64,000 nt of DNA from the NCBI RefSeq assembly GCF_013315695.1, contig NZ_CP054354.1; one strand, written 5' to 3'. Shown here piece by piece: positions 8,687-23,789 of this stretch. This DNA is from Escherichia coli (GTDB taxonomy: Bacteria > Pseudomonadota > Gammaproteobacteria > Enterobacterales > Enterobacteriaceae). Position 1 is the stretch's first letter. Every line of letters begins with the position of its first letter. The notes beneath the pieces were generated by a model. It was not told the DNA's origin. It searched no databases and worked only from the letters and a program-made list of their open reading frames with translations. A program made the position numbers and the translations under genes.

Positions 8687-11407
8687 ATGAATGCCATCAT
8701 TCCGAAAAAAAGACGTGACGGAAAGTCTTCTTTTGAAGACCTGATTGCGTACACCTCAGTGCGGGATGATGTGCCGGAAGATGAACTCAGGCCTGACACG
8801 GAAATGAAAGCTGAGATTCCGCACCGGAACCGCTTCAGACGTCTTGTTGATTATGCAACACGTCTGCGTAATGAAAAATTTGTTTCCCTGATTGATGTGA
8901 TGAAAGACGGCAGTCAGTGGGTGAATTTCTATGGTGTGACCTGCTTTCATAACTGTTTGTCTCTTGAATCTGCGGCTGAAGAAATGCAGAAAGCAGCAGA
9001 GCTTGCTCATTTTTCCAAAGATGATACAGACCCTGTTTTTCACTATATTCTCTCCTGGCCTGCGCACGAAAGTCCGCGTTCTGAGCAGCTTTTTGACTGT
9101 GTGCGTCACACCCTGAAATCCCTTGAGCTGTCAAAACATCAGTATGTGGCAGCCGTTCATACAGACACGGATAACCTGCATGTACATGTTGCAGTGAATC
9201 GTGTCCACCCTGAAACCGGCTATATCAATTGCCTTCCGTGGAGCCAGGAAAAACTCAGTCGTGCATGCCGTGAACTTGAACTTAAGCACGGATTCGCGCC
9301 GGATAATGGTTGCTTTGTACATGCACCGGGCAATCGTATTGTGCGCAAAACAGCGCTGGTACGTGAGCGCCGTAATGCCTGGCGACGCGGGAAAAAGCAG
9401 ACGTTCAGGGAATATATTGATCAGATGTCGATTGCCGGGCTGCGTGAAGAGCCAGCACAGGACTGGTTATCTTTGCATAAACGGCTGGCCAGTGATGGTC
9501 TGTATATCACGATGCAGGAAGGGGAACTGGTGGTGAAGGATGGCTGGGACAAAGCGCGGGAAGGTATTGCACTCAGTTCGTTCGGACCGTCATGGACAGC
9601 TGAAAAACTGGGGCGGAAACTGGGGGAATATCAGCCTGTACCGACAGATATTTTCAGTCAGGTGGGGACACCCGGTCGTTATGATCCGGAAGCCATAAAC
9701 GTTGATATCCGGCCGGAAAAAGTGGCAGAAACGGAGAGTCTGAAACAGTACGCCTGCCGTCATTTTGCCGAACGCTTACTGGCAATGGCGCGCAATGGTG
9801 AACTGAAAAGCTGCCTGGCTGTACACCGTACTCTGGCAGAGGCGGGATTATGGATGGGGATTCAACACGGGCATCTGGTACTGCATGATGGATTTGATAA
9901 ACAACAGACACCAGTACGTGCAGACAGTGTGTGGCCGTTAATGACGCTGGATTACATGCAGGATCTGGATGGTGGATGGCAGCCTGTACCGAAGGATATT
10001 TTTACTCAGGTCGTTCCCGGAGAACGATTCCGGGGACACAGTATTGGCTCTCAGCCTGTCAGTGATTACGAATGGTATCGCATGAGGATGGGCACAGGTC
10101 CGCAGGGGGCTATAAAGCGTGAACTGTTTTCTGATAAGGAAAGTCTGTGGGGATACGGCCTTATTCAGTGCAGGAGCCTGATTGAAGAGATGATAGCTGA
10201 CGGGGATTTCAGCTGGCAGGCATGTCATGAGATGTTTGCACGTAAAGGGCTTATGCTGCAGAAACAGCATCATGGTCTTGTGATTGTGGATGCGTTTAAT
10301 CATGAGCTGACACCGGTGAAGGCCAGCAGTATCCATCCTGATTTGACGTTATCCCGTGCCGAGCCTCAGGCCGGGCCATTTGAAATTGCGGCTGCAGATA
10401 TTTTCGAACGGGTGAAGCCTGAATGTCGTTACAATCCGGAACTTGCTGCCAGTGATGAAGTGGAACCCGGCTTCCGGCGCGATCCTGAGATTCGTCGTGA
10501 GCGCCGTGAAGCCCGTGCAGCTGCGCGGGAAGATTTGCGTGCGCGTTATCTTGCATGGAAGGAGCACTGGCGTAAACCCGACTTACGTTACGGAGAACGG
10601 TTACGGGAAATTCATGCTGCCTGCCGTCGGCGCAAGGCGTATATCCGTGTGCAGTTCCGGGATCCACAATTGCGTAAGCTGCATTACCATATTGCGGAAG
10701 TGCAGCGTATGCAGGCGCTGATCAGGCTGAAGGAGAGTGTGAAGGAAGAGCGGTTGTCACTGATTGCGGAGGGTAAGTGGTATCCTTTGTCCTACCGGCA
10801 GTGGGTGGAACAACAGGCGGCTCAGGGAGACAGGGCTGCAGTATCGCAGTTACGTGGCTGGGATTATCGTGATCGTCGCTCGCGTAATAAGGATAAAAGA
10901 CGCACAACTAATGTTGATCGTTGTGTCGTACTCTGCGAACCCGGAGGAACGCCACTTTTTAATAATGTTGCAAAACTTGAAGCTCGTCTTCAGAAAAATG
11001 GAAGTGTTCATTTCAGGGATACGCGGACAGGAAAAAATGTCTGTACGGATTACGGAGATCGGGTTGTTTTCTACCATCACACGGACCGAAATGAACTGGC
11101 AGAGAAGCTTGATTTAATTGCGCCAGTTCTGTTCAGCCGCAACGGAAAGCTTGGTTTTGAGCCGGAAGGTTCATACCAGCAGTTTAATGATGTGTTTGCA
11201 GAAATGGTGGCCTGGCACAATGCAGCGGGAATAACCGGAAACGGACACTTCACCATTACTCGTCCGGACGTGGATTTGCACCGTCAACGCAGTGAGCAGT
11301 ATTACCGGGAATATATCAGACAGCAGACCCGTTTATCGGAGAGCCATGATGATAATTATACGTTACGGCAGGAGAAAACATGGGAGCCACCATCACCTGG
11401 AATGTAA
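8687..11407 (+). CDS. nikB: NikB-like MobP-family relaxase
   Basis: 906 aa; HTDTDNLHVHVAVNRV fits the relaxase HxDxxxxHxHxxxN histidine motif; size close to R64 NikB. Confidence 0.75.
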   Translation: MNAIIPKKRRDGKSSFEDLIAYTSVRDDVPEDELRPDTEMKAEIPHRNRFRRLVDYATRLRNEKFVSLIDVMKDGSQWVNFYGVTCFHNCLSLESAAEEMQKAAELAHFSKDDTDPVFHYILSWPAHESPRSEQLFDCVRHTLKSLELSKHQYVAAVHTDTDNLHVHVAVNRVHPETGYINCLPWSQEKLSRACRELELKHGFAPDNGCFVHAPGNRIVRKTALVRERRNAWRRGKKQTFREYIDQMSIAGLREEPAQDWLSLHKRLASDGLYITMQEGELVVKDGWDKAREGIALSSFGPSWTAEKLGRKLGEYQPVPTDIFSQVGTPGRYDPEAINVDIRPEKVAETESLKQYACRHFAERLLAMARNGELKSCLAVHRTLAEAGLWMGIQHGHLVLHDGFDKQQTPVRADSVWPLMTLDYMQDLDGGWQPVPKDIFTQVVPGERFRGHSIGSQPVSDYEWYRMRMGTGPQGAIKRELFSDKESLWGYGLIQCRSLIEEMIADGDFSWQACHEMFARKGLMLQKQHHGLVIVDAFNHELTPVKASSIHPDLTLSRAEPQAGPFEIAAADIFERVKPECRYNPELAASDEVEPGFRRDPEIRRERREARAAAREDLRARYLAWKEHWRKPDLRYGERLREIHAACRRRKAYIRVQFRDPQLRKLHYHIAEVQRMQALIRLKESVKEERLSLIAEGKWYPLSYRQWVEQQAAQGDRAAVSQLRGWDYRDRRSRNKDKRRTTNVDRCVVLCEPGGTPLFNNVAKLEARLQKNGSVHFRDTRTGKNVCTDYGDRVVFYHHTDRNELAEKLDLIAPVLFSRNGKLGFEPEGSYQQFNDVFAEMVAWHNAAGITGNGHFTITRPDVDLHRQRSEQYYREYIRQQTRLSESHDDNYTLRQEKTWEPPSPGM

Positions 11408-16373: not shown

Positions 16374-16515
16374 GAGGATTCCTCCATCGATAAATAGATA
16401 AATTTCGGGATGAGGCTGAGTGGAATTAATGCGAACAATCGCCGGTAATGACCGGGCAGGGCTGAATTCAGCAGGGCATTTTCACAGGAACAACAGAAGG
16501 TGGTGAGAGACAGGC

Positions 16516-16547
16516 ACAAAAAAGCCGACTGGTGAGGCCGGCTTTTT
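16516..16547. terminator. bidirectional terminator-like hairpin flanked by A- and T-runs
   Basis: aaaaaagccgactggtgaggccggctttttt; near-identical copy at 17246..17277. Confidence 0.5.
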
Positions 16548-16909
16548 TGCGATCCCAGGGAGAGTGGGTGGCTCTGGCCCGGAGGAAGTCTCTTTTCAAC
16601 TAACGTTACCAGAATATCGTTATATTCACCTGATCGCAATCTGTTCGTTACAGTCTATTGTTCCGGGAGTAGCGATATCGCCTGAAACAAGTATAATCAG
16701 CAAGTTAGCCTTGTCTGGAGACTTACCTTCGCATCAATCCATCGGGACTATGGATCTGTGCTATTCAAAGACCTGGGCGGACAAACAGGTGGTGCTGCGT
16801 CTGGTGCTCTGGCCGGAGGAAGTCTCTTTTCAGCTAACAATGAAAGAGCTGTTGTGACAGGCAATGTAAGAGTAAACAACAGTGATTTCCTCCATTGATG
16901 GAGAAACGG

Positions 16910-17005
16910 ATGATTAACCTGTTAATCATCGTTCTCAGGGCGGTTGTTGCTGTGGCTAACGCAGTGATAGCTCTCCTGGAACTGATCCGGGAACTGGTTG
17001 ACTGA
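16910..17005 (+). CDS. small hydrophobic peptide, 31 aa; candidate type I toxin (DinQ/TisB-like)
   Basis: MINLLIIVLRAVVAVANAVIALLELIRELVD; GGAG RBS lies inside the palindrome CTCCAT-TG-ATGGAG; strong terminator follows; tandem duplicate at 17594..17689. Confidence 0.4.
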   Translation: MINLLIIVLRAVVAVANAVIALLELIRELVD

Positions 17006-17026
17006 TAATCCCGGAAACGTACTTAA

Positions 17027-17056
17027 GGGCAGAGGGTCACCGCCCTCTGCCCTTTA
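17027..17056 (+). terminator. rho-independent terminator
   Basis: Perfect 10-bp stem GGGCAGAGGG / CCCTCTGCCC, loop TCACCG, then TTT. Confidence 0.65.
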
Positions 17057-17245
17057 ATAATCTACGGACAGATTACTTTCTGTACTTCCAGAGCCTGTTT
17101 CTGTGAGTCAAACATGAGCTGGTTTTTACCGACTACACCCAAGTAAATATATTCGATATCTCCCATTTGCCGTATTTTCGTAAAATTCAACAGGAAATAT
17201 TCAACGGGAGTGAGAGAACTGCTGTCCGGGGAGGAGGTACAGACG

Positions 17246-17277
17246 CAAAAAAACCGACTGGTGAGGCCGGTTTTTTT
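17246..17277. terminator. bidirectional terminator-like hairpin (copy 2)
   Basis: aaaaaaaccgactggtgaggccggttttttt. Confidence 0.5.
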
Positions 17278-17593
17278 GCGATTCCGGATCGAAGTTGGTA
17301 GCCCTGACCGGAAGATAACTGCCTATAACTGACTATGAAATAATACGGCTGAAATAATATTTCTGCAAGCACAGTATAAGTATATACTCGGTGTGTCAGC
17401 TTTGAGGCACGTTCTTTCCGGCATATCGTTCACCGGGATGAACAGGTTGCAAGTCCTGGCCAAAACATCAGGTGGTGCTGGTTTTGGTGCTCTGGCCGGA
17501 GAAGAACTGTCTATAACTGACACTATAGAAAACGTGGCGACAGGCAATGTAAGGGCAAACCACGGTGTTCTTTCTCCATTGATGGAGAAGCGG

Positions 17594-17689
17594 ATGATTA
17601 ACCTGTTAATCATCGTTCTCAGGGCGGTTGTTGCTGTGGCTAACGCAGTGATAGCAATCCTGGAACTGATCCGGGAACTGGTTGACTGA
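17594..17689 (+). CDS. small hydrophobic peptide, 31 aa; candidate type I toxin (copy 2)
   Basis: MINLLIIVLRAVVAVANAVIAILELIRELVD; same RBS palindrome and terminator; the track ORF 17393..17689 is an in-frame upstream extension. Confidence 0.4.
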   Translation: MINLLIIVLRAVVAVANAVIAILELIRELVD

Positions 17690-17710
17690 TAATCCCGGAA
17701 ACGTACTTAA

Positions 17711-17740
17711 GGGCAGAGGGTCACCGCCTTCTGCCCTTTA
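17711..17740 (+). terminator. rho-independent terminator (copy 2)
   Basis: GGGCAGAGGG-TCACCG-CCTTCTGCCC then TTT. Confidence 0.6.
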
Positions 17741-18078
17741 ACAAAATATGCTCAGGTTAAAAATCGAAAACCTTCCTGCACTTCCTGTGCCTGTTCCCGT
17801 GAGTCAAACATGAGCCGGCTTTTACCCGGAACTCCCCAGGAAATATATTCTACATCCACCCACCATTTTCCGTATTCTTCATACGGTCCGGATATCACTT
17901 TAGTGACAAATGCATCAACCAGGTTCATTTTTACACCTTTCTGTTATTCTGCTTATTACGACCAGCAGACAGCAAATATTAAAAATAACGCGGCGGTAAA
18001 AATGGCAATTTTTTTCCATGCTGTATTTTTGCCATTTATTTTCTTTGAAATGGTTTTTTTCTTCATATCAGCAAATAA

Positions 18079-18546
18079 TTATTTCTTATTCTGTTTTCTC
18101 CAGGTCCATGGTGGTACCGGATTTTTATCTGCCCATAATCCCCGCTTCAGGGCGCGGGCATCACGCTGGAGCGGCGGGAGAGTATAGTCATTATTGTAGT
18201 CCGGGTACACCCAGGCAGCGCCGTTACGGACCTGCCAGCGATTTGCTTCTGTGCCGTCAGCGGTATAGACCCGGCCGAGAATACGGCCATACCTGTCTGT
18301 CTGCGCGTATTGCACGGTTACGGGCTTTCCGGCCACCAGGTCCTTCAGCTGAGTGGCTGACCAGCGTCCAAAGGGCTGTTTCTTTTCCGGTGCATCAATA
18401 TTAGCCAGACGGACCCTGACAGGCTTTTTGTCCTGTAATATTTCCAGCGTATCACCATCAAGAACGCGGATGACGTGCCCCTGAATCTGTGCAGCACAGA
18501 GAGAAGCGGAAAAAATAATGGTGAGTGAAAAGATATATTTTATCAT
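18079..18546 (-). CDS. nuc: secreted thermonuclease (staphylococcal nuclease-like)
   Basis: 155 aa; signal peptide MIKYIFSLTIIFSASLCAA; VIRVLDGDTLEI and RLANIDAPE motifs typical of SNase-fold nucleases. Confidence 0.7.
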   Translation of the reverse strand: MIKYIFSLTIIFSASLCAAQIQGHVIRVLDGDTLEILQDKKPVRVRLANIDAPEKKQPFGRWSATQLKDLVAGKPVTVQYAQTDRYGRILGRVYTADGTEANRWQVRNGAAWVYPDYNNDYTLPPLQRDARALKRGLWADKNPVPPWTWRKQNKK

Positions 18547-18648
18547 TTCATCGTCTCCTTTTTATTTATGAAAACAGGTGCAATTAATATTGCGAAATAA
18601 TAACGTTCAGGTGTGTTTTTTTTGGCAGTGTGATACTTCACGCAGGGC

Positions 18649-19329
18649 ATGAATTCCAGTACGCTGATATCCGTGATGATACGGCAACAGATATCCGGTG
18701 ACGGTATGCAGGAACATATTGATTATCAGATTGAGAAATATCAGTTCAGGGCCAGGAATGAGTCACCGCGACTGATGCGCCAGTGGGAAGATGTCATGCG
18801 TGAATGCCGTGATACCGGAGCAGGAGCCAGGGAGCGGCTGCGGATTGCCTTACTTAATGTTGATTATGTGACCAGTTTTGAACTGCCGTTTCGTCTGCTG
18901 TTAACCCGGACACCGCAGATGATTGACAGCGTGCGGCGGGAATGGCAGCTCAGCCAGAAAAAAGTTGTATTCAATGAGCGGCAGCGGGGATGTGTATACA
19001 GTCTGCAGAATGACTTATCCGGCGTGCCGGATAGCTTCAGTTACAGTCTTGCGACGCGAATACGGCGGGCGGACAGCTATGGCATGACGACGCGTTGTTT
19101 CACTGATATAGCCGGGCAGGTTAAAGCCCCGACAGCACGGCTGAAACTGGCGCTGGAAAGCGGGTTAATTGTCACCGCGCTGGATGGTCTGTTCTGGCTT
19201 GGTATTCAACGTATTGCCGCAGATGTGCAGCGGCTGCGTCAGTCCGGAATGACAATCATCACCCGGGATGTTGAGGTCTCAGACTCGCTGACCGGAACCA
19301 CACGGGTTGTTTCCGGGTACAGCCTTTGA
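18649..19329 (+). CDS. hypothetical protein, up to 226 aa
   Basis: ORF only; true start may be internal; no confident motif. Confidence 0.35.
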   Translation: MNSSTLISVMIRQQISGDGMQEHIDYQIEKYQFRARNESPRLMRQWEDVMRECRDTGAGARERLRIALLNVDYVTSFELPFRLLLTRTPQMIDSVRREWQLSQKKVVFNERQRGCVYSLQNDLSGVPDSFSYSLATRIRRADSYGMTTRCFTDIAGQVKAPTARLKLALESGLIVTALDGLFWLGIQRIAADVQRLRQSGMTIITRDVEVSDSLTGTTRVVSGYSL

Positions 19330-20985: not shown

Positions 20986-21138
20986 ATGCCACAACGAACG
21001 TTTTTAATGATGTTAATCGTCGTCTGTGTGACGATACTGTGTTTTGTCTGGATGGTGAGGGATTCGCTTTGCGGATTTCGTATCGAGCAGGGAAATACGG
21101 TGCTTGTGGCAACGTTAGCCTACGAAGTTAAACGTTAA
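20986..21138 (+). CDS. hok: Hok/Gef-family type I toxin (PndA/Hok-like), 50 aa
   Basis: Not in ORF track (<60 aa). MPQRTFLMMLIVVCVTILCFVWMVRDSLCGFRIEQGNTVLVATLAYEVKR matches the Hok/PndA pattern; overlapped in another frame by ORF 20838..21131 (mok-like). Confidence 0.7.
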   Translation: MPQRTFLMMLIVVCVTILCFVWMVRDSLCGFRIEQGNTVLVATLAYEVKR

Positions 21139-21275
21139 CGGGCAACACGGCGGTAGAGAATCTGCCGCCGGATTGTTGCGAAGGCTGACCTCAATGCGCC
21201 TTGTTTGTCTTTTTTACCGGACGACTGCTGGTTGCTGCTGTCCGGCAGCTATTATTTTTTCCGTCCTGTGCGTCA

Positions 21276-22862
21276 TCAATTATGACAGTCGCTCTCATTT
21301 AGTTGTCTCTGGTTAGATGTATTATTAGATATTTTCGGGGTAATTCGATAAAAGTTATCCACTTCAGCACCAGACTGAATGATATATGCAATAAGATCTA
21401 AACGATGAATCTCGTATCGTGTACGTAACTCCATCATTTCACGCCATGCTAAAATCCTTGATGTTTTCAGTTCAGCCTCTATAAGTTTCCATGTGTTTGT
21501 TGAGATGGCATGTTCTTCCAGCTGACGTAACGAGAACCTATCACTAATGACCAACCATCCCCATCCTCGAGTATGTGCCCATTTGCGACCTGCATTACTT
21601 TTTATTCTCGTGAGACTCAAGGTCATTCGGTCTGTTGGCTTCACTTCCATAAGTAGGCACCGACCATCAACTGTCGCAATGAGTAAATCTGGATAGTATT
21701 TTTTTGATTTGTTTTTAAAACAATATGGAATAGAAAATGGTTGTTCTTGATAGAAAAGAACCTGATCGCAACATTCTAATAGATTCATTATTTTAAACTC
21801 AAGCCCTGATTCGTACTGGACTGTACGACCTAATTTTTGAGAGTAAAAGAATCCAGATATGTCAGTATCATTAACCGCTCTCTGTGAACATAGCTGTTCT
21901 ACGGGGGGAGGAGGTGCGATATATTTTGGCCAATGTGTATTGTCTAGCCATTTACTGAATATGAACTCAACTCTTTCTTTCTTGATTCGGGCTCTTTCCT
22001 GAGCGCGAGCGTGTGCTAATTCTGCTCTTCGTTCACGTAACCTCTGCTTTTGTAATTGTGATATTAATGAGAGCGAACTTTTTATTTCATCTCGTCTTGC
22101 TTTAGGAATGCCTGCGGTAAAAATAATGAATTTGGCGGCTAAGTCAGAGGATGTAACGAAATCCCGATGAACAATACGATAAATCCATACTGCTATATCA
22201 TATGGTGAATTACCTATTGAGTTAATAAGGGCTTTAAGGCAAGCTCCAGGTGTCCCTTCATAGCGAGATTTAGCAGCTAGTAAGCCAAGGGCTCGTTCCT
22301 GAAGTTGTCTTACCCTTTCACGGGAAATTCCTAATTTGACGGCAATATCTGCCAGAGAATGAGGTGAATCATCTGTGCCGAGTCGCATTAGAAGAATATA
22401 TTGATGTCGTTTATTAGATAAACTTTCGATAGCAGAATGAATTAGCATAATGACATCATGTTCATCGGCTATATAATCTTTAAAATCTGTATTGGGTTGG
22501 CAGAGGGGGAGTGGGGTATTTTGTTTAAAACTATTCTTTTGTATTTCAACTTTATCATGAGCAATTGTTTTTGCAGTGCTCAATGATATTAAATTATTGA
22601 TGATACTATTGTGTTCTTGGCGAGGAATCTTGTTGAAGTAATTGCTGAGATCATTCACCGTGTTTATATCGTTGAACTCAAGAAACTCAGAAGGAAGCAG
22701 GCGTTTGATTGCTCCACGTATTCCCCCGGACGATCGTTGATGTGTTTGAGTAAGTTTTTTTAGCGAGACGCCCTCCGCTATGGATACGAGAAGACGCTGT
22801 AACTCTTCAGTATTCCATGGAGTACCATGTCGTGCTGGAAAATTGCTGCGGGATTCAGACAT
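21276..22862 (-). CDS. sigma-70 region-4-like HTH fused to PD-(D/E)xK (TnsA-like) nuclease motif; unknown function
   Basis: 528 aa; HQYILLMRLGTDDSPHSLADIAVKLGISRERVRQLQERALGLL fits sigma-70 region 4.2; C-terminal YYPDLLIATVDGRCLLMEVKP fits PD...EVK; lies in a visibly AT-rich segment. Confidence 0.55.
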   Translation of the reverse strand: MSESRSNFPARHGTPWNTEELQRLLVSIAEGVSLKKLTQTHQRSSGGIRGAIKRLLPSEFLEFNDINTVNDLSNYFNKIPRQEHNSIINNLISLSTAKTIAHDKVEIQKNSFKQNTPLPLCQPNTDFKDYIADEHDVIMLIHSAIESLSNKRHQYILLMRLGTDDSPHSLADIAVKLGISRERVRQLQERALGLLAAKSRYEGTPGACLKALINSIGNSPYDIAVWIYRIVHRDFVTSSDLAAKFIIFTAGIPKARRDEIKSSLSLISQLQKQRLRERRAELAHARAQERARIKKERVEFIFSKWLDNTHWPKYIAPPPPVEQLCSQRAVNDTDISGFFYSQKLGRTVQYESGLEFKIMNLLECCDQVLFYQEQPFSIPYCFKNKSKKYYPDLLIATVDGRCLLMEVKPTDRMTLSLTRIKSNAGRKWAHTRGWGWLVISDRFSLRQLEEHAISTNTWKLIEAELKTSRILAWREMMELRTRYEIHRLDLIAYIIQSGAEVDNFYRITPKISNNTSNQRQLNESDCHN

Positions 22863-23135
22863 GATTTTATCTTTATGTTTTCTAGGTACTGCCTTGAGTG
22901 TGTGGATATGATAATTATTTGTAATGATATTGTTATCTTTTATAGATAACTGATATGCAGAATTGTATTGATTTTGTCTACAGTGGGCAAGACAGTGCTA
23001 AGAATTTGTGGGGAAAACATAGAGACTCCATGCGGCGTCCTGAGATAGACGGCAGACAGGCATTCTGCCTGAAAAGAAAAAGCCGGTTCAGAGAAAACCG
23101 GCTGACGGATTATCGTCTAACAGTTGATAGCTACC

Positions 23136-23789
23136 TCAAAATACTTCTGCAACAGGAACACCGGCAACTTTTTCCCACTCTTTAACCCGATACCGGATCA
23201 TCTGTGGGAAACGTTCCTTGTACTCATATCCACGTGCAGCCATGGTGTGCATGGTGTTGGCCAGCGTCCTTGCTGAGATGCCGGAGATCTCAAGAGGAAT
23301 CATCGGCAGACTCACATAGGTGGTGTGGATTTCCAGCTTGCCGTCTTCAGCAACCGTGCGGGTAAAGTTGTGAATATCCAGACCAATCACATCCATCACA
23401 TTGTTTGGATAAATACGCACATACAGCATGGTGCCGTTTTTAATGTCGATCCCGAAATAACAACTCTTCGAGAATGACAGTTGCTCATAATCGCTGGTCG
23501 GCGCAAAGGGACTGCTTTCTTTTATCTGCTGAACAACCTGCTGGACTTTCTTTTTCTTCGCTCTGGTTTTCATATATAGCCAGAGTGATGGGAGTATTAA
23601 TAGGAGCCAACTGCCATAAGTATATAGATATGCTTGAATATCTGTTTCTATATATGGTTCTGTAAGCATCATACCGGTAAATCCTAGAGAACATAGTAAT
23701 AAAAAAGGAACACCAAATATAAAATAAGCAGTGCGGATAAGGTAATAATATGCCCACCAGGAAGGATATCTGCTTTTTGTTGTGTTCAT
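23136..23789 (-). CDS. excA: ExcA-like entry-exclusion inner-membrane protein
   Basis: 217 aa; N-terminal TM segments; immediately downstream of traY as in R64; AT-rich. Confidence 0.45.
   Translation of the reverse strand: MNTTKSRYPSWWAYYYLIRTAYFIFGVPFLLLCSLGFTGMMLTEPYIETDIQAYLYTYGSWLLLILPSLWLYMKTRAKKKKVQQVVQQIKESSPFAPTSDYEQLSFSKSCYFGIDIKNGTMLYVRIYPNNVMDVIGLDIHNFTRTVAEDGKLEIHTTYVSLPMIPLEISGISARTLANTMHTMAARGYEYKERFPQMIRYRVKEWEKVAGVPVAEVF

Follow-up and report, generated by a model that had tools for sequence, protein, structure and literature searches.

The locus and the architecture of its product

Some of the I-complex conjugative plasmids of Escherichia coli carry, as an accessory cassette, a gene whose product joins part of a sigma factor to a restriction-type nuclease. 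The copy described here lies in a 64,000-nucleotide stretch of contig NZ_CP054354.1 (assembly GCF_013315695.1), hereafter the window, where the sigma4/TnsA-like nuclease gene occupies positions 21276..22862 of the minus strand as an open reading frame (ORF) of 528 codons with an ATG start. A preliminary description had placed it in AT-rich DNA between a hok-like locus and excA. The ORF is indeed found there, with both peptides that had been quoted from its translation and with hok and excA as its neighbours in the window; its GC content is 39.4% against a window average of 53.4%, and a 500-nt profile stays at 0.38-0.40 across the gene before returning to 0.5-0.6 on either side. We put at about even the chances that the product is a stand-alone, modular DNA endonuclease guided by helix-turn-helix (HTH) modules and used in conflicts between mobile elements, be it in anti-phage defence or in exclusion of, or competition with, incoming DNA.

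Profile searches divide the protein into two recognisable halves. Pfam reports Sigma70_r4 at aa 150-193 (E 2.2e-8) and Tn7_TnsA-like_N at aa 366-440 (E 1.8e-11), and NCBIfam finds the same two: its TnsA-like model NF033179 TnsA_like_Actin matches at E 2.4e-12 and 46.8 bits, against a cut-off of 110 bits, while region 4 of the RpoH, RpoS and RpoD models and of the defence-associated MzaA matches at ~1e-6 to 1e-7, all far below the family cut-offs. AlphaFold2, run on an aligned set of 98 homologues, gives a very confident model with a mean predicted local distance difference test score (pLDDT) of 91.8 and a predicted template modelling score (pTM) of 0.67, disorder being limited to aa 1-4, aa 106-117 and the last residues. 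In this model the sigma segment folds as a four-helix domain, in agreement with Pfam and NCBIfam, and a Foldseek search aligns the nuclease half with TnsA. The mid-protein sigma-70 region 4 HTH and the TnsA-like PD-(D/E)xK nuclease, both first proposed from short motifs, are therefore confirmed as folds.

From the N-terminus, the chain (minus strand throughout) begins with a three-helix HTH of Myb/SANT- or homeodomain-like appearance (aa 10-57, 22692..22835), its helices modelled at pLDDT >90. It carries the motif RHG-PW-EE-L...G...L..H-R..G-I...RLLP with conserved W16/E20/L24/R43, but its similarity to Myb and other HTH families is weak and it is left as a generic three-helix HTH, a variable accessory module seen in about half of the family. 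Two helices (aa 65-110) and a disordered linker (aa ~106-133) lead to the sigma-70 region 4 domain (4.1 and 4.2), whose four helices span aa 134-198 (22269..22463) and include the recognition helix S-R-E-R-V-R-Q (aa 180-186, nt 22305-22325). A conserved three-helix middle domain follows (aa 205-249, 22116..22250, with helices at 205-216, 220-234 and 239-249); this segment is present in all family members and aligns across them at 52-68 aa. Next comes a single long charged helix (aa 254-307, 21942..22103), 59% of which is E/R/K/Q/A. It joins the DNA-binding half to the nuclease half, varies from 33 to 54 aa across the family, and would serve as a rigid spacer or as an oligomerisation element.

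The TnsA-like PD-(D/E)xK catalytic domain covers aa 311-440 (21543..21932), with predicted catalytic residues E355 (21798-21800), D392 (21687-21689), E406 (21645-21647) and K408 (21639-21641). It is followed by a helical/winged-helix domain (aa 445-510, 21333..21530, pLDDT >95), the counterpart of the TnsA C-domain, which gives a weak profile match to the C-domain of TnsAB. Foldseek alignments to 1t0f and 1f1z run over 222-234 columns and cover both TnsA domains. The matches in the Protein Data Bank also include 4g6d, in which G1 ORF67 is bound to domain 4 of sigmaA.

Conservation of the putative reading and cutting modules

The active site is almost invariant among the 98 homologues: E355, D392 and K408 are each kept in 97/98 and E406 in 96/98, with S352 present in 98/98 and a YQEQP motif in 96-97/98. 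A profile of the nuclease half matches PseTnsA at 1e-12 and, less strongly, Tn7 TnsA at 5e-4; the motifs ES-LE, Y-PD and E-x-K line up. Given such a site it is unlikely that the protein has lost its activity and is purely regulatory, and the "nuclease-derived regulator" that had been offered as an alternative at the outset is accordingly disfavoured.

The sigma half is conserved just where a sigma factor would touch DNA. Near-invariant positions are R152, R160, G162, L170, E182, R183, R185 and Q186 (92-97/98), with R181 in 80/98; we take their sigma-70 equivalents, from alignments to primary sigma factors, to be R554, R562, G564, L573 and R584-E585-R586-x-R588-Q589. Structural and genetic work has established that these region 4 residues contact the -35 element. 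The family profile matches region 4 of SigA/RpoD at E ~1e-20. Most simply, the domain may be taken to have kept the sigma way of binding duplex DNA, with a TTGACA-like motif as a possible site.

Between the two modules the distance is held within narrow limits. From Q186 to the invariant W311 there are 109-129 aa (interquartile range 116-121), in proteins that are only 21-61% identical, and such a constraint suggests a structural connector of fixed length between a reading head and a cutting head.

A filter-free search against 1.84 billion cluster representatives returned 2060 proteins with E <=1e-3, of which 441 reach <=1e-10 and 58 reach <=1e-30. The alignments mostly cover query aa ~140-500, many of the proteins consist solely of this core of ~370-390 aa, and both Pfam domains are found in 96 of the 98 aligned members. 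Homologues in Dickeya, Pectobacterium, Salmonella, Providencia and Buttiauxella are 55-61% identical, those in Xanthomonas, Stenotrophomonas and Mangrovibacter ~40%, and those in Streptomyces, Kitasatospora and Archangium ~30%; AFDB50 extends the family to Firmicutes, Bacteroidota, Chloroflexi and Alphaproteobacteria. All these matches are uncharacterised. Several entries (A0A7M3PPJ2, A0A2R4AE05, A0A447PUZ7, A0AB38D679 and others) are named "RNA polymerase factor sigma-32", "RpoS" or "RNA polymerase subunit sigma", wrongly, because the members have no sigma region 2; these labels are worth correcting.

Several members begin not with the Myb-like HTH but with the C-terminal domain of the alpha subunit of RNA polymerase (RNAP), present once or twice (alpha-CTD; Pfam PF03118, E 2.3e-15). 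With an E. coli alpha-CTD query, phmmer finds it in homologue P0093 (2.6e-18, two copies) and P0083 (3e-11), and also in P0049, P0063 and P0086. The block of alpha-CTD plus sigma4 matches positions ~803-953 of the PADLOC profile of PglW (P0093 at 1.9e-16, P0049 at 2.9e-12), and the sigma4 domains match the C-terminus of MzaA (E 1e-7 to 4e-14). In a further homologue, P0095, an N-terminal Ser/Thr kinase is fused to the core and matches the validated defence kinase PD-T4-6 at 2e-59. As a separate observation, the match to the PglW profile implies that PglW itself contains alpha-CTD and sigma4 modules of RNAP origin.

Such pieces invite another explanation, in which the protein acts as a guard: sigma4 and alpha-CTD, the two promoter-recognition modules most often hijacked by phages, would not chiefly read DNA but mimic those surfaces of RNAP that phage take-over proteins bind or modify, and capture of such a phage protein would free the nuclease and abort the infection. 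Such phage proteins would include AsiA- and G1 ORF67-like anti-sigma factors and ADP-ribosyltransferases acting on alpha-CTD. The modules are indeed promoter-recognition pieces (sigma4 in 96/98 members, alpha-CTD in several) and they recur in defence proteins, the double block in the kinase PglW and sigma4 in MzaA. The likeness of the family consensus to primary sigmas goes further than the residues that contact DNA (...ALRRLA... against ALRKLRH), phage proteins are known to target sigma domain 4, as in 4g6d, and a nuclease without partners that stays silent until infection would be accounted for. If true, this would be a guard mechanism sensing transcriptional hijacking, present on conjugative plasmids and in defence islands, in which binding or modification by a phage take-over protein, and not a DNA sequence, switches on DNA cleavage. 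The plasmid sigma4 is however only ~32% identical to region 4 of E. coli sigma-70 and scores 14 bits against E. coli RpoD, compared with 21-25 bits against Thermus or Staphylococcus sigmaA; it would therefore be a poor mimic of the host sigma. Moreover, its best-conserved positions are exactly those that contact DNA, the third of the alternative N-terminal modules, a generic Myb-like HTH, better fits plain DNA binding, and any trigger would be hypothetical. We regard the decoy as unlikely.

Plasmid cassette and genomic neighbourhoods

On the I-complex plasmids the gene travels in a cassette of ~1.8 kb (21201..23047, from blastn end-points) that distinguishes its carriers from other members of the group: homology with gene-less plasmids breaks off towards hok at ~21200-21224 and is found again towards excA from 23048. 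In this slot, immediately downstream of excA and with window 23048-23135 on its excA side, R64-type plasmids hold a HEAT-repeat ORF (R64 locus L002 4700-5000), which bears out the earlier suggestion that R64 has no comparable gene, and pESBL holds a Hha/YmoA-family regulator gene beside excA (PMC4288162). Since gene-less plasmids carry a different segment at the cassette position, the site reads, from these alignments, as a slot for swapping cargo and not as a simple insertion site. The cassette is present in ~309 of ~1900 plasmids that have the common hok locus (~16%), on IncI1, IncI-gamma/K1, IncK2/Z and IncB/O replicons. The gene occurs in 255 of 5426 complete E. coli genomes, where all 260 copies are on plasmids and none is chromosomal; 206 of them cover at least 80% of the gene. 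Positions 21000-23100 of the window are 100% identical in DNA sequence to the IncI1/B/O plasmid NZ_CP032260.1, in which the gene order is thermonuclease-like, HTH, small ORFs, hok/Gef, sigma4/nuclease gene, excA and traY. The low GC is confined to the plasmid allele: other homologues equal or exceed the GC of their own flanks, so that the donor of this allele was probably a low-GC organism not yet sampled.

The gene is often lost. An in-frame internal deletion between CCATGG and GCATGG microhomologies removes aa 17-472 and leaves an ORF of 71 aa (P0068); this allele, a natural null form suited to comparison, is found in IncK2/Z plasmids (NZ_CP024887.1, IncFIB/IncK2/Z, L003 2700-3170; CP088445.1; NZ_CP127318.1). 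IS1 lies near the 5' end of the gene in a group of I-complex plasmids of Shigella sonnei (CP102114.1, CP104436.1, CP104411.1, CP104414.1 and CP104424.1), a truncation to aa 1-319 is annotated "sigma factor-like HTH DNA-binding protein", 19% remnants are annotated "RNA polymerase subunit sigma-70", and protein databases hold many other fragment entries. Six intact I-complex alleles differ from one another by 2-11 nucleotides per pair, outside the sigma4 domain and the catalytic core. Could the protein then be a catalytically dead, nuclease-derived transcription regulator, or simply a decaying junk gene? Its three HTH-type modules, the many truncated copies and a palindrome over its promoter (see below) that could be an auto-operator would fit. 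But 96-97 of 98 homologues, from several phyla, retain all four catalytic residues, ~280-310 plasmids carry an intact IncI allele whose substitutions avoid both the sigma4 domain and the catalytic core, and the AlphaFold2 model is very confident. This possibility is close to negligible.

Upstream, on the same strand, an intrinsic terminator of excA (23081..23103, a 9-bp stem and a T-run) separates the gene from the tra/excA transcript. A promoter region of its own is predicted at 22908..22990 (minus strand) from a consensus scan and direct reading, which give two sigma-70-like matches, TTGCCC-17-TACAAT at 22990-22962 and ATAACA-17-TATCAT at 22936-22908; the number of matches from the scan is not above shuffled expectation. 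A perfect 7+7 palindrome, GTTATCT-ATAAA-AGATAAC (22932-22950, minus strand), overlaps the -35-like hexamer of the proximal site and could be an operator, perhaps an autoregulatory one. The strong terminator, together with these hexamers and the palindrome, makes it probable that the gene is an independent transcription unit.

This arrangement bears on a third explanation, that of a factor tethered to RNAP or occupying promoters. Region 4 of sigma is the module that binds the beta-flap. The sigma4 domain would thus bind the beta-flap of core RNAP or compete for -35 elements, and the protein would either cut DNA or R-loops where transcription units are stalled or foreign, or modulate transcription of host or transfer genes. 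Besides the beta-flap affinity of region 4 in general, its region 4.1-like helices are kept, including an HDV motif, the gene stands at the end of the tra/excA block, and pESBL has another small regulator (Hha/YmoA) in the same slot. Most I-complex plasmids, R64 among them, nevertheless lack the gene, and where present it is often disrupted, so that it is not part of the transfer machinery; its promoter-like region lies behind the excA terminator, a regulator needs no conserved active nuclease site, and homologues are mostly found outside conjugative plasmids. Such a role seems very unlikely.

The neighbourhoods of the homologues were sampled at 11 loci, a small sample with no background control. 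Four of these are clear defence islands. The Pectobacterium homologue stands in an integrase/AlpA island between Gabija (OLD-TOPRIM ATPase and UvrD helicase) and McrBC, the Salmonella homologue adjoins the BREX genes BrxA-BrxB-BrxC-PglX, that of Xanthomonas cannabis lies beside an SMC-like ATPase, SIR2 and GmrSD, and the fourth is in an integrase island with OLD-TOPRIM, TIR, PIN, HNH and a STAND-type NTPase. Several others are on plasmids or integrase islands. The Providencia homologue is on a plasmid, another is on an F-like conjugative plasmid near traM with KAP NTPase and GIY-YIG neighbours, and further contexts are an ssrA-adjacent integrase island, a HipA neighbour, a bpMoxR cluster and an integrase on a short contig. 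None of the sampled contexts contains TnsB/TnsC, a methyltransferase or a recurring neighbour of the gene, the sole methyltransferase belonging to the neighbouring BREX; the gene is thus solitary. In one gammaproteobacterial genome (L016 3454-11596) the homologue lies ~4.7 kb downstream of rpoD, from which it is separated by a HipA-family kinase toxin gene and a gene-free stretch of 2.3 kb; this proximity may be chance or reflect an integration hot spot.

In a profile scan of genome contigs 79 of the 80 loci found were ordinary sigma factors sharing the sigma-4 pattern, and only one (L022) matched the nuclease domain. A scan of IMG/VR viral contigs with the nuclease alignment alone gave two loci, one of which (L111) is high in GC with ambiguous ORFs; this rarity in viral contigs speaks for the role in mobile-element conflict. 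The phage database holds one full-length relative, in a 22.5-kb insertion with three tyrosine recombinases in the Mycobacterium abscessus prophage prophiT36-1, and a one-line note on that insertion is the only mention of the family found in the literature.

A leader also accompanies the gene. The Pectobacterium (L004), Salmonella (L006) and Providencia-plasmid (L014) homologues share ~150 nt of conserved sequence ahead of the start codon (each at 9850-10000), including an inverted repeat, GGCTGT...ACAGCC, which indicates that the leader or promoter moves with the gene as a cassette. In the window the corresponding region (22863-22910) is still recognisably related, though diverged.

A fourth explanation would make the gene selfish, an orphan descendant of a Tn7-like TnsA that spreads itself or its ~1.8-kb cassette, or that aids recombination of its carrier element; empty target sites would be cut, and the cassette copied in by repair. 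A single-gene cassette in many unrelated genomic contexts, a 5' leader that travels with it (Pectobacterium, Salmonella, Providencia), clear TnsA homology, and homologues that adjoin integrases or sit in the three-tyrosine-recombinase element would all suit this idea. Against it, neither TnsB/TnsC nor a DDE transposase is adjacent in the sampled loci, and the cassette alternates with a different segment at its slot, which points to recombinational swapping and not to insertion into an empty site. Terminal repeats, whether inverted or direct, were not seen at the borders of the IncI cassette, which were mapped by homology; the scan for inverted repeats covered 21150-23150 (9-nt seed, arms within 60 nt), and this is a weak negative that included no dedicated search for an array of TnsB sites. 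Frequent decay also argues against efficient homing, which we therefore hold to be quite unlikely.

The same part of the plasmid shows further variation. Between trbA and a thermonuclease-like gene, the module of the DinQ-like type I toxin dqlB (window 16505-17856) is tandemly duplicated into two dqlB copies, with a repeat unit of ~684-729 bp and segments 71-94% identical; this is probably the "RD1"-type duplication of S. Typhimurium IncI1 plasmids (PMC8004404). In the variable trbA-excA region, window 18088-19329 contains a thermonuclease-family gene (minus strand) and a divergent 226-aa HTH gene (plus strand, 18649-19329), both absent from R64, which look from their sequences like another accessory pair of nuclease and regulator.

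Proposed mechanism and comparison with known systems

How might such a protein work as a guided endonuclease? The sigma4 domain, aided by the N-terminal Myb-like HTH, would bind duplex DNA through the sigma-type -35 residues of its recognition helix, the predicted target being a TTGACA-like motif. The helical module of conserved length (the three-helix domain and a charged helix of ~45-55 residues) would then set the nuclease at a fixed distance, where the catalytic domain (E355, D392, E406-x-K408) would cut the DNA in a layout analogous to that of the Type IIS enzyme FokI. With no methyltransferase, antitoxin or conserved partner, activity must be restrained in some other way, which could be low expression, autoinhibition, or some feature of a trigger or substrate.

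A role for this endonuclease in mobile-element conflict is favoured because its active site is intact and strongly conserved, as are the DNA-contact residues of sigma4 and the length of the spacer; because its distribution is solitary, patchy and horizontally mobile, as is usual for accessory defence cargo, with recurring locations in defence islands and on plasmids; because its modules are shared with PglW, MzaA and PD-T4-6; and because it is often lost, as expected of a costly accessory gene. The initial suggestion of a DNA-targeting nuclease for defence or plasmid competition thus appears strengthened by the defence islands and by the shared domains. Homing, tethering to RNAP and a dead regulator are each less likely.

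Several points nonetheless weigh against this role. Only four of the 11 contexts are clear defence islands, in a small sample, and two (Streptomyces and one Xanthomonas) lie among housekeeping genes. The ratios of non-synonymous to synonymous polymorphism (pN/pS) among the six alleles are scattered from ~0.1 to 1.7, the substitutions being too few to reveal selection in one direction or the other, and a phenotype has been demonstrated for none of the homologues. A nuclease without partners, aimed at a -35-like motif, should also be toxic to its own host; what would restrain it is the main gap in this reading, and one that keeps the decoy idea alive. Finally, Tn7 TnsA alone is inactive without TnsB/TnsC, so that intrinsic activity of the plasmid protein cannot be assumed.

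Should the gene encode a working defence or exclusion nuclease, it would be a widespread one-gene addition to the bacterial immune repertoire, spread over hundreds of clusters across Proteobacteria, Actinobacteria, Firmicutes, Bacteroidota and Myxococcota. In that case the modules with which RNAP recognises promoters (sigma4, alpha-CTD) would have been taken over to direct a nuclease or to control it. The I-complex plasmids that carry it spread extended-spectrum beta-lactamase (ESBL) and other resistance genes in E. coli, Shigella and Salmonella, and it could affect phage susceptibility, with consequences for phage therapy and phage typing, or plasmid co-existence. A sigma4-guided cleavage module with a fixed-length spacer is also a possible scaffold for programmable DNA cutting.

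The architecture had at the outset not been recognised from any described defence, exclusion or regulatory system, and no function is assigned to it in PADLOC v2, in NCBIfam above cut-off, in PHROGs or in the searchable literature. Against PADLOC-DB v2.0.0 the full-length protein gives only a weak match to SspB (5.6e-4, aa 171-251); the nuclease domain alone matches no family at E <=10, and the homologues match solely through sigma4, alpha-CTD or the kinase of P0095. Partner genes of PADLOC defence systems were not found beside the gene. The protein is not listed in the main text and tables of DefensePredictor, and the plasmids of the papers on IncI1 phage-type conversion and on transposon sequencing (TnSeq) of pESBL, which concern other genes, lack the sigma4/nuclease gene.

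Closest in fold is TnsA of Tn7, of Tn7-like elements and of CRISPR-associated transposons (1f1z, 1t0f; PseTnsA), which has in common with the plasmid protein the restriction-like fold and the catalytic Glu, Asp and Lys. Unlike TnsA, however, the plasmid protein has no TnsB, TnsC or target selector nearby, and it carries ~310 extra N-terminal residues comprising the HTH, sigma4 and the helical spacer. A Tn7 relic or TnsA transposase subunit was thus rejected, there being no TnsB/TnsC in the window or in the 11 contexts and the match being below the curated NCBIfam cut-off. Sigma-70 factors of groups 1 and 2 (RpoD/SigA, RpoS, RpoH) share region 4 with it, but regions 1.2, 2 and 3 are lacking, and with them holoenzyme formation and promoter melting. 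Neither the query nor any of the 98 homologues matches Sigma70_r2, and only region 4 aligns to the NCBIfam sigma models; a true sigma factor was rejected on the absence of region 2.

The catalytic domain of TnsA resembles the cleavage domain of FokI. This Type IIS enzyme likewise appears to offer an analogy in its separate HTH-type reading module, its non-specific PD-(D/E)xK cleavage module and the constrained connector between them. The plasmid protein differs in having no cognate methyltransferase and a sigma-derived recognition module, and its cleavage at a distance would still be an extrapolation. A Type II/IIS restriction-modification enzyme was rejected, since no methyltransferase adjoins the gene in the window or recurs in the homologue loci.

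Among defence proteins, PglW (the kinase of BREX type 2/Pgl) and MzaA (the sigma-like protein of MZA) share the alpha-CTD plus sigma4 block, or sigma4, with members of the family, and DNA-reading modules derived from RNAP thus seem, at the level of sequence, to recur in defence. The plasmid protein itself has no match to PglW, no kinase and no partner genes, and its nuclease domain lies outside both profiles. Subunit A of PD-Lambda-3, a validated E. coli defence system in the DefensePredictor tables, also has a TnsA-N-type nuclease, without sigma4; that the PADLOC models, PD-Lambda-3 included, do not recognise the plasmid nuclease domain is one more point against a defence role. PHROG matches to "head closure" proteins (phrog_218, E 1e-11) arise because head completion proteins of the T4 gp4 type carry a TnsA-like nuclease (Iyer et al., 2021); these TnsA-N-type enzymes of phage packaging have no sigma4, and the similarity extends over ~75 residues of the catalytic core. 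Set beside these systems, the plasmid protein and its relatives are restriction-fold nucleases with an appended, unusual targeting or sensing module derived from RNAP, found in defence islands and on plasmids.

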